Part shown: one piece after another, positions 6,681 to 64,000 of the stretch | Layout of the letters: each line of letters begins with the position of its first letter | Numbering within the stretch: position 1 is the first letter of the stretch | From: Histomonas meleagridis 2922-C6/04-290x | Lineage: Eukaryota > Protista > Parabasalia | Length of the DNA: 64,000 nucleotides | Direction: 5' to 3' | NCBI GenBank assembly: GCA_020184695.1 | Contig: JAANOX010000037.1 | Coordinates: forward strand, 336,267 to 400,266 | Program-made: the position numbers and the translations under genes | The notes under the pieces: generated by a model | What the model saw: the letters and a program-made list of their open reading frames with translations, nothing else | Databases searched by the model: none | What the model was told of the DNA's origin: nothing

Positions 6681-7856
6681 TTAATTAAGTGGATCGTACT
6701 TATTTCTCTTGCACTTATCCTTTACGATGACTATAACTGCTATCACGCCAATTGCAAGGCATATAATTACCGATACGTATGCAATTATCATTGGCTTCCT
6801 CGATGATGTTGGTTCGAATGTGTTAACTTCGACAAGTTCATATTTTACAGAACTTGGAATTCCTTTTGTGTCAATTTTATTTTGATTTGCTTTTGAGCTT
6901 CCGAGTGTCAAACTAAATCCGGTCGTATCCTTCCAATTGCCATTAAAAACGAAACCGATTTTAGCGTTTAAGAATGGCTTAATGTCAGTGACTCCATGCA
7001 ATTTCACTTTCTCAAAAAGATAATAGTTTTTAACCAAATTCTCAAAGAATCCATAGAATGGTTGGTCAAAGATGATTTTGATTGGCTGTGGAGTCTTGAC
7101 ATTATCAGAAAGATTTATTGTGATATCATATGAGTCTGAAATATATGGATCGACCATAATACTTACTTTGGATGTTTGGGAGTTTGGTATGACATATTCA
7201 GTGGTTTCTTCGTCTTCATCTGTAACTTCAAGTGTTAATTGATTAGAATCAACTTTGATGGATGTGAGTTTGTCATTGATAATAAATGTTTTACTAGATG
7301 CTGTGGATTCGTTGAGTTGGGCGAGATCAGTGGTGTAGAGTTCGTCAGTTTCAAGTTTGCCTGTTAATAGTGTATGATATAAAACTGCTTTGGGAACTTT
7401 GATTGTCCCATTGATTTCCGTACTGTGCGAGCTGAAAATAATTTGCGATACTGAGTTGGTTAAATCTTGATTTTTATAATAAACAACATCGGTTTGGAGA
7501 CTACTCATGTAATAGCCTATATAAACACTCTTTTTGGCAGAGGAGGGTGATAGGTCAACGGGGTTGTCAGGGGTACTAGAAAATGGGCCAATGTATGCAT
7601 TCTTGCTGATTATATTTCCAATAGTCGAAGCTTCTGTTAATTCTGGGCAATAAAGATCAAGAGTTGGATAAAGGTCAATGATCTTTCCAAGTACTTCGCA
7701 GTATTCTGGAGCATAATTTTTAGAACAATTATTATACTCTTCCTTCATTTCTGGTGTTACTTCAGTCACCTTAGGACAGACTTCCTTCATGTCAAAATAA
7801 ATATATTGAAAATCAGTAGTTGCTCCGAGAGTTAATCCTATTAAAAAGAAAAACAT
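6681..7856 (-). CDS. Type I single-pass surface protein of an uncharacterised family (distant paralogue of 38783-40012 and 40832-42196)
   Basis: Short hydrophobic N-terminus, C-terminal TM (IIAYVSVIICLAIGVIAVIVIV), tail ending YDPLN; shares a Cys pair and the IIFDQPF motif with the two paralogues. Confidence 0.75.
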   Translation of the reverse strand: MFFFLIGLTLGATTDFQYIYFDMKEVCPKVTEVTPEMKEEYNNCSKNYAPEYCEVLGKIIDLYPTLDLYCPELTEASTIGNIISKNAYIGPFSSTPDNPVDLSPSSAKKSVYIGYYMSSLQTDVVYYKNQDLTNSVSQIIFSSHSTEINGTIKVPKAVLYHTLLTGKLETDELYTTDLAQLNESTASSKTFIINDKLTSIKVDSNQLTLEVTDEDEETTEYVIPNSQTSKVSIMVDPYISDSYDITINLSDNVKTPQPIKIIFDQPFYGFFENLVKNYYLFEKVKLHGVTDIKPFLNAKIGFVFNGNWKDTTGFSLTLGSSKANQNKIDTKGIPSSVKYELVEVNTFEPTSSRKPMIIAYVSVIICLAIGVIAVIVIVKDKCKRNKYDPLN

Positions 7857-37302: not shown

Positions 37303-38575
37303 TAGGGGGTGGAAAAAGTCCGTTCGTCAGCTGATTTATATTAGATATTAATGAAATCAAATTATATAAATAAAATTTATAATAAATATATTATCATTAT
37401 TATGATAATACTTTTTTCCAAGTAAATATGATGCATGAAGTAAAACTACTTTTTTTCATGATACCCTCGAAAAAGAACGTTTAATCATTTAAATGTCAGT
37501 TCCAATTGAGGAATTACGTTCTGTTGTCCATTTTCTTTAGTTAGAATCAAATGAAAATCAAGACATATATAGGCGATTATGTGCTGTATATGGTGATAAT
37601 ATTATTACACTTCGAACAGTTCAGAAATGGACAAAAAAGATGAATGAACATACCTTCTCAATTTTCGAACAGAAAAAAACAGGGAGACCAAGAAGATCAG
37701 ATTTAGATCAAAGAATAACCAGTTTTATATTAAGTTATCCATATGCATCGACGAAGAAAAATTGCGAAGAATGTAGGCGCAGATCCAAAAAAACAGTGAA
37801 AAAAATATAATGATTAATATTTTAGGGATGAAAAAAGTTAACTTCAAATGGATCCCACATAAGTTGACTCCAGAAATTAAAGCCAAAAGAGCTGCCATTG
37901 CTTCTGAATTATTTGAATTCCATTCTAGTTCAAATGACTACAGACTAAGACACATATTGACGCAAGATGAAACCTGGATTTATTTTGTTAACGGGAGAAA
38001 CTCGATGTGGATTGAATCTGGAGTGCAAAAACCATACAAACCCAAACAACCTATTGCCTCCAAAAAAGTAATGATATCTGTTATATGGTCTATAACTGGT
38101 ATCAAATCAATAACAATGCTCCCGTTAGGCCAAAAATTTAATCGAATTTTTTTTCTGAAGTTGTACTTGGAGATTTGGCAAAAAGAATTTCAACGAAGGG
38201 ATATTTTTTGCATATGGATAACGTACGGCCTCATTTGGTTCATGAAAAATTGAATGAATCGGGGATTAAAAGACTTCCGCAACCCTCGTTTTCGCCAGAC
38301 CTCGCACATTCTGACTTTTTTCTGTTCGGATATCTAAAAAAAATGCTCGAATATGAGGAGTTTGAAAATGAAGATCAACTTTTTCAAAAGGTCGAAACAT
38401 TACTGTATAATATTCCTAAAGACATCTTCAAAGCCGTATATAATGAATGGATGAACAGACTTTTAATTACAATTGAAACTCAAGGTGAATACACATCATA
38501 ATAAATAAACAAAATTTCTTTTACTTTTTTATTCATTAAAAAAAAGGCTGACGAACGCACTTTTTCCACCCCCTA
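37303..38575 (+). mobile_element. Complete Tc1/mariner (mariner-like) DNA transposon, 1273 bp, decayed
   Basis: 29-bp TIRs TAGGGGGTGGAAAAAGT(C/G)CGTTCGTCAGC at 37303-37331 and 38547-38575 with one mismatch; TA on both sides (TATA makes the exact end ambiguous by 2 bp). Confidence 0.95.
37493..38501 (+). pseudogene. Mariner transposase pseudogene (DD31D)
   Basis: N-terminal HTH (LCAVYG...RTVQKW, GRPR), WIPHKLT, TQDETW, HMDNVRPH and FSPDLAHSDFFLF; TAG at codon 16 and frameshifts near 37760-37810 and 38155. Confidence 0.93.
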
Positions 38576-38782: not shown

Positions 38783-40012
38783 TTATACATCAGATAAACT
38801 TCCAGATTTTGACCAAAACTTCTTGTATACAATAGCTCCCACAACAGCACCAAGAGCTACGATAACTACAACCACAACTCCGATTATTAGACCTGTTTTC
38901 GAACTTTTATTCTCATCAGAAGAAGCTGTAGGGACATCAGAAATATTCGTAGAAGGTTTTCCTGTGTCTTTGTGCTCGGTTTTTTCTGGTTCATCTGGAT
39001 CAGAAGTCGCTATATAAGGATCAAATGTATTATCTTCTTTTGCCTCTCCCATTACTTTTTCAGGAATATCATCAGTATTTAAGAAATTCTTTGATTTTGG
39101 GGATGCTATAAGATTTATTTTTAATTTCGAATCTTCCCATTTATTTTTATCGAATTCAAATTTAACAACAGGAGCTCCTGTTGTTGAGAAATAATTATCC
39201 TTTACCACAATATCCATATCATCAGGATCTAAAAAGCCAAAAAGAATTGAAGAGAAAGGATCATCAAAATGTATATCTATTGTAGAATCTTCTTTACAAT
39301 TCTTTTCTAAAGTCATTTTAATTTGTGAATCAACTTTTGACGAAAATGGACTAACAACAATACCAACATTATCTTTATAATTGATTGGACGTGATTCAAG
39401 CAAAAATTTCTCTTCATCAACTTTGATTTCTAGAGGTGGTAATAAATAAAGTTGTTTTTGTGTAGCTTCTATATTTTTGAAACTATCATCATTTGATTTT
39501 GTGATAACTCTATTAGATTTAACTTTTCCACCTTCAAATGAAGAAACAAAAATTGTGTCAGCTGTAAAATCTCCATCGAAAATAGTATGACTATTAAAAA
39601 CAATGGTAGGAATTGTTTTTGATACATCTGCACTTTTTACATATAAGTTTGTGGATGAACCGAGAATATGAATTCCTAATTTTGGAATTGATACTTTAGA
39701 AAGATCAAGAACATTATTCTTGTTATCTTCTAAAATAAGTATAGCTGCTGATTTGGCGCCAGAAAGATCTTGATCAATATTACTTAAGTCTTTCAATTCT
39801 TTGTTAATAGAGATTTTTTCACATGTATCAACAAATGATTTAACTTTTTTACATTTTTCATCATCTCCCTTATCTTTGCAATTAGAATCATATTGTTCCA
39901 TTAATTTGGTTATAATGGGATTCGCATTTTTTTCCCCTCCATAAAGAATTATTCTATGATTGGGTTTCTCTTTTTCATCGCATATGATTGAATAGATGAA
40001 AAGAAGAATCAT
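38783..40012 (-). CDS. Type I single-pass surface protein, uncharacterised family (tandem paralogue 1)
   Basis: MILLFIYSIICD leader, C-terminal TM (LIIGVVVVVIVALGAVVGAIVY), tail ending LSDV. Confidence 0.8.
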   Translation of the reverse strand: MILLFIYSIICDEKEKPNHRIILYGGEKNANPIITKLMEQYDSNCKDKGDDEKCKKVKSFVDTCEKISINKELKDLSNIDQDLSGAKSAAILILEDNKNNVLDLSKVSIPKLGIHILGSSTNLYVKSADVSKTIPTIVFNSHTIFDGDFTADTIFVSSFEGGKVKSNRVITKSNDDSFKNIEATQKQLYLLPPLEIKVDEEKFLLESRPINYKDNVGIVVSPFSSKVDSQIKMTLEKNCKEDSTIDIHFDDPFSSILFGFLDPDDMDIVVKDNYFSTTGAPVVKFEFDKNKWEDSKLKINLIASPKSKNFLNTDDIPEKVMGEAKEDNTFDPYIATSDPDEPEKTEHKDTGKPSTNISDVPTASSDENKSSKTGLIIGVVVVVIVALGAVVGAIVYKKFWSKSGSLSDV

Positions 40013-40831
40013 TAAAAATGAAATGATGAGATAGTTTTTTTATAAAAAAAACATTATTTTTATACGAAAAAACCCCACAGAAATTTTTATGTTGGTTATT
40101 TTTGTTGATTTTTTATATGATTAAGTTCAACACCAATATTTACTTTGATGTATGTGAATATATTTTATTAAATATACAATGAAATATTTTGTTTTGCTTT
40201 TTATGTGGTTTTAAATAAGCTTGAGAATTAACATTATATCATACAATTAAATTAGTTTAAAATGAGATATTATATATATATATTGACGCATCATTTTAAC
40301 ATTCATAAAGATATCTTATTTGATTTAACCTTAAAAATTAAGGTCAATATGTTAATATACTAATTAAATGATGTATTTTATATATTTTTATTGCTAACTT
40401 TATTATGGAGTAATATAAAATTTAATAAATAACATCAATAATATAATAAAGAATCAGAATCTTTTAATTTAATAAAAAAAAAATCCTCATATTTATTATA
40501 TCATAAATATTTATTTTATTATAAAAAATGAACTTTTATATCAAACTTGATAGGATTACATACAACTGTTTAACATCTCAGGAGGAGCTGTCTTACATAA
40601 GGAAAATAATTCAGGGCCTCTCCTGCAGAACCCCTCTAAATTGCATACAAGGTACTCACCATCCTGGAATAAATTTCTCCCCTTATGATTACTGTTTACA
40701 CCTCTCAAAATGCCATTCTACAACCATACACTCCGTTCCTTATTCTTCACTCTGGCCAAAAAAAATCTTTTTTAACACATTATCAAATTATTCAAAGCTC
40801 AAAACAAATTTTTAAATAATTAATGATGTTT

Positions 40832-42196
40832 TTATACATCAGAGATGTTCTTAGGCGTTTTTTGAAGATTCTTAGATACAACGATTATCAAAGCAATAAC
40901 AATTACTACTGCAGCCCCTACAGCGGCAGCAATAATCACAATATTGTTTTTGCTCTTTTCTTTATTTTCTTCATGACTTGGTTCGTCAGTTTTTCCTGGT
41001 TGTTTTGATTCAGGACTTTCAGTTTCTTTTTGATCAGTTTTTTCTGGTTGTTTTGATTCAGGACTTTCAGTTTCCTTTTGATCTGATTTTTCTGGTTTGT
41101 CAGGTTCAGGACTTTCAGTTTCCTTTTGATCTGATTTTTCTGGTTTGTCAGGTTCAGGACTTTCAGTTTCCTTATGATCTGGGTCATCTGGCACAAATTT
41201 TGAATCTCCTTCAAAAGTTCGATCTTCCTTGAATTCACCTAATACATCTTTATGAAGAGTGTTGATATCCAGCAAAGTACTAGTTTTTGATGTTGTTATT
41301 ATATTTATTTTTAATTTAGAATTTACCCATTTACTATTATCAAATGCAAATTTAATTTTAGGAGTATCTACAGAAGCAAAATAACCATCATTCATTAAAA
41401 CATCGAATTCATCAGGTTCTAAATAACTATAACAAAGTGTAGTGAAAGGATCTTCAATAAATATGTTTATTACAGAATTTTCTTTACAATTACTTGCTAA
41501 GGTTACTTTAATAACTCTATCCTCATATGGATTAAGAAGAATACCAACATCATCTTTATATTTAAAAGAATATTTTCTAACTCCATTACTATATTGATTC
41601 GCAATTTCATAATGATCTTCATTTATAATAATTTCAATCGGATTTGTAAAGATATATTGTCTTTTCGTTGTCACTACGTCTTTATTATCAGGTTCTCCAA
41701 TATAACGATTAGCTTTCACGTTCCCCTGTGTTCCAATTGCATAAATCTGATCTACCACAAAAGTACCACTAGTAACCGAAACAATATTTTTTAATGCAAT
41801 TACTGGAATTGTTTTAGATATGTCAGCATTTTTAATTAGCGTAGTAAAACCTAAATTGTAAATACCTAATTTTGGGATCGTAACTTTCGATAAATCAAAG
41901 GTAATGGGGTGGTCCATATCTTCCACATATATTACTGCTGACTCAATACCAGAAAGATCATTAGCAAGGTTACTTAATTCATTTGCACCTTTATAAAAAA
42001 TGATTGATTTGCTTTTGAAAATAATTGAATTGCCTTTATCACATTTTCTATCACTTGTTTTCCCCTTGCAATAAGATTCATGATGTTTCATGAAGTTATC
42101 TAGATGTGGAGGGATATATTTGGATTGTCCATAATAAAAAATCGCATGCTTGGGCTTCTTATCACATATGATTGAAGGAATGAATAGAAGAATCAT
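40832..42196 (-). CDS. Type I single-pass surface protein, uncharacterised family (tandem paralogue 2)
   Basis: MILLFIPSIICD leader, collinear similarity to paralogue 1, a repeat stalk, TM and tail ending ISDV. Confidence 0.8.
   Translation of the reverse strand: MILLFIPSIICDKKPKHAIFYYGQSKYIPPHLDNFMKHHESYCKGKTSDRKCDKGNSIIFKSKSIIFYKGANELSNLANDLSGIESAVIYVEDMDHPITFDLSKVTIPKLGIYNLGFTTLIKNADISKTIPVIALKNIVSVTSGTFVVDQIYAIGTQGNVKANRYIGEPDNKDVVTTKRQYIFTNPIEIIINEDHYEIANQYSNGVRKYSFKYKDDVGILLNPYEDRVIKVTLASNCKENSVINIFIEDPFTTLCYSYLEPDEFDVLMNDGYFASVDTPKIKFAFDNSKWVNSKLKINIITTSKTSTLLDINTLHKDVLGEFKEDRTFEGDSKFVPDDPDHKETESPEPDKPEKSDQKETESPEPDKPEKSDQKETESPESKQPEKTDQKETESPESKQPGKTDEPSHEENKEKSKNNIVIIAAAVGAAVVIVIALIIVVSKNLQKTPKNISDV
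40979..41170 (-). repeat. Coding 48-bp tandem repeat x4 (ETESPE[PD/SK].PEK[S/T]DQK)
   Basis: Two ETESPEPDKPEKSDQK and two ETESPESKQP units immediately before the TM. Confidence 0.9.
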
Positions 42197-42778
42197 GAAA
42201 AAAAAATGATGAGCAAGTTTTTTTTATGAGTTATTTTTAAAACAGAGAAATCTTTCATATTATTTTTGTATTATTTGTTTTTTTACTATATTTTAAATGT
42301 TTTTTACATAATAAAACTAAAATATGTTTAAACAACTACTAGCTAGTATGAATTTTTATTTGAAAAACATTTAGTGAAATAAAATCAAATTTATATCAAA
42401 CCGAATTACAATGATTTTTCCTGTTAACTTTCATATTAATAATCTGATTTTAGCGCAACATAAAAACATATAATAAATCACATGTTATGATAAAGAAAAC
42501 ATGATTTTATTTAATTAACATGATTAGCTAAATTAAGAAAACGTTTCAAAATTTAGTGATATCTTTTGTAAGGAGATATTGTTTTTATGATTATAACGAA
42601 AATAACATTTAGATGAAATTTAATTGCAATTTCATTCTAATATTCCATGGCCTTTGTAGGATCAAATGAATTAGTGAAATTTGAATCATATAAATTATTG
42701 TTTGCATTTTCTTTGTCTTTGGGGTGGTCCATAAAACGGATTCAGCGGTTAAAACGGTTATGGTCTTCCTTTTTAATA

Positions 42779-60676: not shown

Positions 60677-60899
60677 AATCCTATTTCAAAACGTGCCTGT
60701 TCTTCAAAAGTGACATCACCTGGGGCTGCCCATTTTTTTGTCAGATATTCGCTGTTTATGATGTTAGTACGTTAAAACGTCACTTTTTAATACTTCAGAT
60801 TAAAAATATCACAAACTCATCCCAAAAATCGTATGACCAAATATCAATTCAAAAGTCATTTCAACGAAACGAGAGTGGTTGCTGGTAGGTATATAATGC

Positions 60900-60976
60900 G
60901 GTCGGGAATGATCACGAGGACCCTAGGGGCCCCGCCGGGGGCGGGGCCCCTAGGGTCCTCGTGATCATTCCCGACC
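60900..60976. repeat. Perfect 37-bp inverted repeat with a 3-nt loop (GGG)
   Basis: GGTCGGGAATGATCACGAGGACCCTAGGGGCCCCGCC (60900-60936) is the exact reverse complement of 60940-60976; about 70% GC. Confidence 0.99.
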
Positions 60977-61359
60977 TTAAGTTTTCACTGGGGGGATTTC
61001 CGGGGTCTTCGGCCTCCGGAGGTGCCCTTCGAACCTCCGAGGCCTCAGACCTCCAACTCTCGAGTGTGCTCGCCCAGCTCGCCACAAAAATCAAAATGAA
61101 TTTTGTGAGCCATACAATTCGTCTGAAAATTTGAATGCGCATTCAATTTTGAGAGAACGCGAAACTTTTTGATAGGAACGATAGCACTTTTAGCACCACT
61201 TTTCGCATAAACCTATCAAAAACCTCACATAACCAACACGAATTGTCCTCGGTTATCTTTGGTCGGACATTTATTTTATTCAATTTATCTTTGCCAGGAG
61301 GTTAATAGTCAAAAAACGACGGTTATTGTTTGGTCTCATGGCAAACTTTATTTTTATAA

Positions 61360-61701
61360 ATGCTTAAACCTGTAACTAAAACGTATTTTTGTACTTCACA
61401 AAAAGAAAACCGTTTTCCGCCTGAATTTGTGGATTCTCAAAATCCTAGATATATAGTAGTACAACAATGTAAGTGTAAATTTAAGGAATATTTAGTATCT
61501 GATGTTTCAATGCATGCTGATTTCATTGAACGTGATCATTATGAAGATTATTTTTGTATTTATACGAATGAAAATAAAACTAAATATAAGAAATATGAAT
61601 ATAAAAGTAGAAAACCAAATTTTAAAATATGGTTTAAAGAAATGAATGGTAAAGAAATTGAACCAGAATATTTTATGTTAGAATTATTATTAATTTATTA
61701 A
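61360..61701 (+). CDS. Small beta-rich protein, putative minor capsid (penton)-like protein
   Basis: Alternating beta-strand pattern ending FKIWFKEMNGKEIEPEYFMLELLLIY, reminiscent of Polinton penton C-termini; by recollection only, not searched. Confidence 0.45.
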   Translation: MLKPVTKTYFCTSQKENRFPPEFVDSQNPRYIVVQQCKCKFKEYLVSDVSMHADFIERDHYEDYFCIYTNENKTKYKKYEYKSRKPNFKIWFKEMNGKEIEPEYFMLELLLIY

Positions 61702-61721
61702 ATAAAAATCATTTTTTATCA

Positions 61722-63659
61722 ATGTTTAGTATTGAGAATGCTACGAAAGGTATAAAAACTAATGTTATTGCTGCTCCTGAAATTATTGACCAAGATGACT
61801 TACAAAAAGTTTTAGAAAATTATTCTACAAATGATCAAATAACAGAAAAACTTAATACTATAACTTCGATTACAATCCCACAATTATATTATAATAAATC
61901 GCAATCAGATGAAAAATATTCTACAAAAAGTCATACTCATAATACAATAAATAATGATCTAACAGTAAATGGGAATGTACAAGTTACTTCATTAAATGGT
62001 TTTCAATTATCAACAGCAAAAGGTGGTAAATGGGATACAAAATTATATGTTCCAGCTATTATCACATTAAAAGAAGATGGTGTTGTAGAAGTTGGACAAT
62101 ATATTGATATGCATTATAATGCAGATTACGATACAGATAATACATGGAGAATAACTGCTAATACTAATTCATTAGATTTTAAATCAAAAACTGGAACATT
62201 ATTAAGTTTTGGTAGTAATGGCAATATTCAATGTGCATCTATAAATAATGTAGATACATCTGAAATATCTTTAAATGATCATAATCATGATGAGATTTAT
62301 GCTAAAAAAGATCATGAACATGTAAACTATGCTTCATCAGATCATACTCATAGTTATACTGATTTAAATGATAAATCACAGTCATTTCCACCTTCAGATC
62401 ATACTCATAGTTATAATGATTTAACTGATAAACCTGAAACATTTCCACCTTCAGAACATACCCATAGTTATAATGATTTAACTGATAAACCTGAAAAATT
62501 TCACCCTCAGAACATACACATGAAGAGTATGCTTCAAAAAGATCATAATCATGATACAAAAATATGCTGCAAACAAATCATACACATAGTTATAATGATT
62601 TAACAGATATTCCTACAGGTTCAAATACAGAAGATATTCATTGTTCAACAATTAATGGTTTTGCTCTAAATTCGGGACCTTCAGCTTCAAATTTAGATAT
62701 TAGTGTTCCTTCAATTGCAGTTATTAAAAACGATGGTGTTTTAGAAACAGGTCCTTACATAGATATGCATACTAGTGATGGATATGAAAATGATTATAGT
62801 TGGAGAATACAATGTATTGAAGATGATATAGCATTTAAACCAAAACAAGGAAATGGTTTTCATTACTCCTCATCTTTTGATGCAATAGGTTGTAATATAA
62901 TAGTTTGTAGTGAAATTATGTACTCTGTAAAAACTAATGGCATTGTTAATACAGGAAATATAAAATCCGATACTGGACAATTCACTAGTTTAGAATCTAC
63001 TAAATTAACTTTATTTCACAGTATAATTGAAGAATCAGGTAATACATATCAATTATTATGGAGAATTTATGGATGTACACCTACTGCAGATAAAAAATAT
63101 GGAAGATTATATTTTGAATCTGTAACACAAAAGAAACAAAATGATGGTACCTTTTCTGATACATATAGTAAAATATATTATATTGCAACTACATTTAATA
63201 CATTCGAAGGAACTGGAGGTCTTGCACAAATAAATACAACTATTATTCATAATGCTCCTGTTTCAGAAGACTTAACACAATTATCAAATTGGTTCACCTG
63301 TATTTTTAACAGGTAATGTTTATGCTATAACTAATGAAGGTAAATATGTTACAAATACTTCATCAACTGATTGTATTCCATCAGTTAAAACAACAGGTAC
63401 ATATAAAAAATATTTAGGTATTTGTGTAGCTAAACATGAAAATGGTTATAAAGCTTCAATAGGTGATGTTATTAGAAGAGAAGTAAAAATTTTACAAGAT
63501 ACTATTGATTTTGCTACACATGGAGATTTTTATTTTAGAGTAAATAATACTGCAGATTATGAAATTGGTGATGTAGTATTATTTGATGGTAATAAATCAT
63601 CAGATGATTTAGTAATAACTACTAAATATAGATGTGAGCTTAGAAAGAACAACAGATGA
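61722..63659 (+). pseudogene. Frameshifted phage-tail-fibre-like gene (about 645 codons when restored; possibly intact if the indels are assembly errors)
   Basis: ORFs 61722-62603, 62564-63316 and an unlisted frame (about 63287-63659, IGSPVFLTGNVY...TDCIPSVK...DFATHGDFYFRV...EIGDVVLFDG) join after removing one -1 and four +1 indels. Confidence 0.75.
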
Positions 63660-63924
63660 TCAATTTAAATATAAACGATTTGACGATTATAAGCAATTTG
63701 AATATAATTTTATCAAACTTTTTATCAAAACTGAAAAAATTACACTCATTAATGGAAAAATTGGAAGAAAAACAATTCCAGAGCATTACGAATATTATAT
63801 CAGAACGATTATCAAAAAATTGAATGAGATGTTTGCACGCAAAGTTTTTGAAGCTAAAAAAAAGCCTCTCAAATTTAATAAATATTGTGAAGAATTAAGG
63901 AATTATAATATTTATGAATTCTAA
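63634..63924 (+). CDS. Hypothetical ORF (GTG start), basic/aromatic, unknown
   Basis: 96-codon open frame overlapping the fibre stop; no motif recognised. Confidence 0.2.
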   Translation: MSLERTTDDQFKYKRFDDYKQFEYNFIKLFIKTEKITLINGKIGRKTIPEHYEYYIRTIIKKLNEMFARKVFEAKKKPLKFNKYCEELRNYNIYEF

Positions 63925-64000
63925 GAATTCACCTTATATTAACACAGGTTTTCAAATCTCGTTCGAAAAACAAATATTTACTTTGAGTAACTATTGACTT

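Follow-up and report, generated by a model that had tools for sequence, protein, structure and literature searches.

A broken copy of a likely attachment-fibre gene at the end of a repeated, probably Polinton-like element in Histomonas meleagridis

We analysed a 64,000-nt stretch of the genome of the parabasalid Histomonas meleagridis (contig JAANOX010000037.1, positions 336,267 to 400,266), hereafter the window. The gene at 61722..63626 on the forward strand is, in our judgement, probably a broken copy of the likely attachment-fibre gene of an endogenous Polinton/Maverick-like virus. A reading as an isolated phage gene within a host chromosome does not hold. A preliminary description of the same DNA had read it as a trimeric fibre gene built from bacteriophage modules. 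That core idea was right but known, as phage fibre modules in protist viruses have been published for Polinton-like viruses (PMC12220804). New here are an unnamed terminal domain, a very small penton-like gene, a hairpin end and an undescribed family in H. meleagridis.

Results

The fibre gene lies just inside a repeated element

Four observations place the fibre gene within a highly repeated element (60884..64000, no strand assigned), close to its left end; the element extends past the window edge. Summed contig depth, which is not a copy number, rose in run X1 from 573-780 in the flank to 3e4-3.5e5 from about 60860 to the window end, and in run X2 from 468 to 2e4-3.5e5; the two runs are two samples of one study. 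Contigs with other flanks joined the element at 60884, as loose ends. Near this end, at 60900..60976, lies a perfect GC-rich hairpin with 37-bp arms and a 3-nt loop, the sole perfect hairpin in the window with arms of at least 18 bp; the folding z-score of 60860-61100 was −10.6. Finally, the G/C content of third codon positions was 0-12% in two element genes versus 20-29% in five host genes.

The fibre gene starts 0.8 kb inside the element end, behind the hairpin and an intact 113-aa gene (61360..61701, forward strand) whose product is predicted to form a single jelly roll and is likely a minimal penton, a minor capsid protein. The window holds two marks of a Polinton/Maverick-like endogenous virus: an element that is integrated and repeated and whose end is defined, and, on predicted fold, a single-jelly-roll penton. 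The preliminary description had correctly placed the gene in a eukaryotic contig but overlooked the element and its penton-like neighbour.

The packaging ATPase, protein-primed polymerase (pPolB), primase-helicase and integrase were seen at related loci; the corresponding region of the window copy lies outside the window. Polinton-type neighbours (pPolB, A32 ATPase, primase-helicase, integrase, penton-like gene) accompanied 28 of the 37 longer related loci, and none of the neighbour clusters examined was a tailed-phage gene. Fibre-family copies occurred on 10 large H. meleagridis contigs, and many were broken. The candidate for a double-jelly-roll major capsid protein, c3 (545-aa type), had no Pfam match and no PDB sequence match, and no match to the DUF4106 capsid was found in the relatives. 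The replication genes differed between loci (L019 and L020 versus L032, L033 and L066), with pPolB in some and a 920-aa primase-helicase in most. L019 and L020 also carried an 803-aa polymerase-like remnant that had no Pfam match. In L048, a nucleotide kinase stood between the penton-like and fibre genes.

The window copy is frameshifted and truncated

The window copy is colinear with two annotated, intact H. meleagridis paralogues, P0326 (657 aa, 87-91% identity) and P0002 (638 aa), and represents a frameshifted and 3′-truncated version of a 638-660-aa protein. The frame shifts fall near 62504, 62538, 62573 and 63282-63285. Likeness to the paralogues, which run 23 residues further, ends at 63626. 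The preliminary description had extended the gene to a stop at 63659; the gene it saw is confirmed, but the last 11 residues before that stop are not fibre sequence. If the breaks are real, this copy is unable to make a whole fibre protein. Sequencing contigs at the break sites mostly lacked the window's form; they also lacked its private substitutions, and rare variants are dropped from such contigs. Frameshifts are common in assemblies of parabasalid Maverick/Polinton repeats, and polishing artefacts in them have been published (PMC10120064). In four runs that we guessed to be RNA, the penton-like and fibre genes were represented by a small number of contigs of low depth; these came from other copies and could stem from DNA. 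At 63282-63626, none of the 115 third codon positions was G or C, compared with 7% in the other fibre pieces and 20-29% in host genes.

The shaft shares modules with phage fibres

Both copies of the DGV.E.G.YIDMH module reported earlier were recovered, at 62070..62153 and 62726..62809 on the forward strand; they are 70% identical at the DNA level, and the second marks where the segment predicted to form the intertwined trimer begins. All nine His-x-His motifs were likewise located (61932, 62280, 62313, 62343, 62400, 62457, 62513, 62544 and 62579), split over two frames; intact P0326 also has nine motifs and four repeats. Three separately translated in-frame pieces held seven of the motifs, a number reached in none of 10,000 shuffles (mean 0.81, maximum 5). 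The His-x-His region (62280..62614, forward strand) contains four repeats of the phage tail/head fibre type with spacings of 57, 57 and 122 nt. The repeats described earlier are therefore present, but their unit is 57 nt, or 19 aa, and not 18.

Matches to PHROG were confined to the His repeat and comprised several tail families (E 2e-8 to 1e-3). The best phage record for this repeat was gp16 of mycobacteriophage Marsha, a head fibre gene adjoining the capsid gene (58% identity over 45 aa). The first YIDMH module weakly matched gp035 of the crAss-like phage cr125_1 (tblastn E 0.02), which contains the GVLEIGKYIDFH module, as the fibre gene does, and by eye ends in an S74-like motif. Phage matches were limited to short modules, and no phage record spanned 80% of any fibre piece. 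As judged by sequence likeness, the shaft modules are common to phage fibres, and this part of the earlier reading stands.

Residues 104-350 of P0002, used as a query, retrieved 329 proteins; among the best 120, 31 had PTR, 16 had S74 and one had G2. The last domain of the fibre family was present in 12 of 116 new proteins among these matches. The Pfam model of the phage tail repeat, PTR (PF12789), had no match in the window pieces or P0001-P0003; the relatives P0234 and P0242 scored above its cut-off. No Pfam match was obtained for any of the three window fibre pieces, nor an NCBIfam match for P0002, P0003 or P0046.

When three copies of P0002 306-638 were modelled together, the chains were intertwined and the trimer score was 0.86, versus 0.02 for the best control. 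Interface residues spanned 313-488, contacts agreed to at least 73% and pLDDT was at least 62. The model supports rather than shows a trimer, and likeness to solved fibres may contribute to its score. The intact paralogue is thus predicted to form a homotrimer, as had been proposed, with intertwined chains. In T4 gp37, His pairs bind seven irons (PMC6957217); by analogy, axial metal ions would sit at the His-x-His pairs of the fibre.

The fibre ends in an unnamed domain

The conserved C-terminal domain (63239..63626, forward strand; last 23 residues absent from the window copy) is predicted to have a beta-tulip-like fold. The C-terminal motifs listed in the preliminary description are present in the window sequence. 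The fibre family combines this constant last domain with widely varying N-terminal parts; the domain occurred in 252 clusters and was C-terminal in 148 of 150. Its near-invariant Thr, His, Cys and Asp suggest chemistry, and an invariant Thr and His sit at the junction with the shaft (T-x-x-H).

None of 50,697 phage records matched the last domain significantly, and scans of IMG/VR for the fibre family gave no confirmed locus. A phage origin of the whole gene, as previously suggested, is therefore not supported. Searches of PDB sequences with both alignments returned nothing significant, and Foldseek of the whole model against PDB gave no match at E ≤ 0.001. The best structural matches of the last domain were the capsid cement chains of T1, FCWL1, BB1, Pam3 and HFTV1; in BFVD, Foldseek ranked unnamed proteins from Tetraselmis virus 1 and Pyramimonas virus highest. 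The last domain may be linked to the FTGQH-type domain of large DNA viruses.

An S74-like chaperone at this position, named in the preliminary description as something to check, is not supported. Peptidase_S74 (PF13884) matched 0 of 22 members, HHalign gave 0.1%, there was no excess over shuffles and the Ser-Lys dyad motif was absent. Peptidase_G2 (PF11962) also matched 0 of 22 members, with an HHalign value of 2.9% and a weak set-level excess over shuffles; T-x-x-H occupies the place of the D-Y/F-A-E motif of G2. Pfam Phage_cement was matched by 4 of 22 members. HHalign to the T1 cement alignment gave 2.0%, the cement set comprising 10 close sequences and the reversed control scoring nearly as high. 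Atlas assigned Phage_cement_2 at 0.84, which is a lead only. The G2 and T1 cement comparison sequences were drawn from viral contigs; neither family was found in the 401 genomes searched for each. The last domain made no confident trimer contacts in the model of P0002 306-638, a result that is uncertain rather than negative. Overall, we somewhat favour an unrecognised intramolecular chaperone as the identity of the domain, a capsid anchor being the rival. The domain is a new part of the fibre that is not described in the literature found. We found no paper on it; the supplement of PMC12220804 (Fig. S6) may list it.

The last domain also occurred in other settings. L060:7958-10510 and L061:7961-10510 encode two nearly identical family members of 850 aa, each with a YLDFH module and a region of propeller-like repeats. 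They stand alone amid intron-less eukaryotic housekeeping genes (SMC, NatB, Sin3, Mpp10, B56, LSM) in two different neighbourhoods, and are suggested to be lone mobile or co-opted fibre genes. On L055-L059, L062 and L063, contigs of 16-23% GC, the same last domain is carried by proteins that reach 2,247 aa in length, one of which has YadA head repeats; no Polinton hallmark was found nearby. L065-L067 are Polinton-like contigs within three bins of bacterial metagenome-assembled genomes (MAGs), where they are likely misbinned.

Other features of the window

Downstream of the fibre gene, 63627..64000 (forward strand) holds further repeated element sequence behind a deletion-like junction; loose ends flank 63626 on either side, and depth past this point is high. 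A 96-codon frame remnant at 63634-63924 had no family match.

At the hairpin, a single contig from run X7, derived from a different copy, reads the 3-nt loop as its reverse complement and is altered on both sides of the pair 60920/60956, as in flip/flop hairpin ends; this may be an assembly effect. Deletions in several copies begin within the hairpin (joints from 60903-60923). A Helitron reading of the hairpin was rejected, there being no helicase-Rep gene here and a penton-like gene next to it. Directly outside the element, 60779-60872 is a separate short repeat of moderate depth that has loose ends of its own and is present once in the window.

The rest of the window carries intron-poor eukaryotic genes, including a BspA-type LRR protein and DUF3447; together with the homologues identified, they indicate a parabasalid, probably H. 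meleagridis. Three genes resemble single-pass surface proteins of no clear family (6681-7856, 38783-40039 and 40832-42223; two in tandem). A frame at 37777-38253 resembles, by eye, a mariner-type transposase fragment. The segment 50000-53000 is very AT-rich and skewed (GC 18-19%, GC skew 0.38, AT skew 0.45) and probably consists of simple repeats.

Discussion

We propose that the fibre would attach to the capsid vertex or penton by its N-terminus and that its shaft would consist of three wound chains; there, the three copies of each His-x-His pair may together bind one axial metal ion, as T4 gp37 does. The receptor-binding tip could be the beta-sheet segment spanning about residues 403-470. 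The last domain would, somewhat more likely than not, act as an intramolecular chaperone of the phi29 gp12/Peptidase_G2 fold type: trimer folding would start at the C-terminus, and the domain may be released by a cut at the invariant T-x-x-H junction. The virus may have taken its shaft modules from phages of gut bacteria through module swapping.

The same virus could also carry the protein with the opposite polarity. The beta-tulip domain would then be a capsid-gripping base of the phage cement or phi29 head-fibre type, attaching the C-terminus and directing the variable N-terminal part outward. Several results weigh for this arrangement and against ours: the cement chains that head the structural matches, the Phage_cement matches in 4 of 22 members together with the Atlas lead, the constancy of the last domain beside its variable partners, and a best phage match of the repeat to a head fibre gene adjoining a capsid gene. 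However, the near-invariant Thr, His, Cys and Asp suggest chemistry, HHalign to the T1 cement alignment reached just 2.0%, and confident trimer contacts of the last domain were lacking, albeit inconclusively. The shells of Polintons are of the double-jelly-roll type. By contrast, gp8.5 has its tulip base at the N-terminus, and proteins of this kind attach to HK97-type shells (PMC7602432). We consider opposite polarity unlikely, yet the most serious competitor of an outward-facing chaperone end.

Two further explanations deny the gene a place in an endogenous virus. A host-domesticated adhesin or lectin of phage descent, comparable to MYRF, would fit the eukaryotic contig and the near-identical L060 and L061, alone among housekeeping genes. 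It is very improbable given the highly repeated element, the penton-like neighbour, the low third-codon GC relative to five host genes, the lack of a signal or membrane segment in the fibre protein and the many broken copies. Less credible still is that the join arose by contamination or as a chimera with bacteriophage or prophage DNA. No listed contig spans the join of flank and element, three relatives sit in bacterial MAG bins, and a phage-contaminated chimeric contig has been reported from an H. meleagridis assembly (PMC8529796). Nevertheless, copies are present on 10 large H. meleagridis contigs, the relatives' neighbours are pPolB, A32 ATPase and a penton-like gene, with no tailed-phage gene among the clusters examined, and the last domain has no phage match.

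More speculatively, and with doubt outweighing confidence, the fibre gene of an endogenous Polinton-like virus may exemplify a third class of self-cleaving fibre chaperone in such viruses of gut protists. In parabasalids, a beta-tulip domain cleaved at a Thr/His site would stand in for S74; it would cap fibres 400-2,300 residues long, in no fewer than 252 clusters, and would also be found in AT-rich contigs from the rumen and in lone host genes; the Histomonas version would belong to an undescribed hairpin-ended virus family of hundreds of copies. If the last domain is a chaperone or capsid anchor, it would fill a gap, in that parabasalid Polinton-like viruses lack S74 yet carry phage-like fibres. 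In gut metagenomes it could serve as a marker for these viruses, some of which are at present assigned to bacterial bins. Histomonas would also be shown to harbour a large endogenous virus family, in a genome for which PMC8529796 counts only 0.2% interspersed repeats versus 20% duplicated sequence. We found no paper on Histomonas Polintons; the supplements of PMC12220804 and PMC10120064 (Tables S4, S5) may list them.

Compared with known systems, T4 gp37, Marsha gp16 and cr125_1 gp035 are phage tail and head fibres with His-x-His repeats; sequence matches to the Histomonas fibre are confined to short modules, and its predicted intertwined trimer is a further likeness. The Peptidase_G2 chaperone of phi29 gp12 (PF11962) shares C-terminal position, by eye a similar motif order and, on the predicted fold, the fold class with the last domain, but there is no significant profile match between the two and the catalytic motif differs. 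The beta-tulip cement proteins (PF22758) would share the predicted fold class but are free-standing. Parabasalid Maverick/Polintons are likewise high-copy integrated DNA virus-like elements (PMC10120064); the Histomonas element differs in its long terminal hairpin and 113-aa penton-like gene, and many of its relatives have a primase-helicase. The closest parallel is with the phage-like fibres found across Polinton-like viruses, including collagen and PTR fibres in 20 T. vaginalis elements: these too are long and modular, contain phage tail repeats and belong to integrated viruses of protists, and they are assumed to form trimers on the penton (PMC12220804). S74 is reported there as missing from parabasalids, ochrophytes and amoebozoans. 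Whereas those published fibres mostly end in S74 or combine collagen with PTR, the Histomonas fibre has no collagen and joins YIDMH modules to an unnamed end predicted to be beta-tulip-like.
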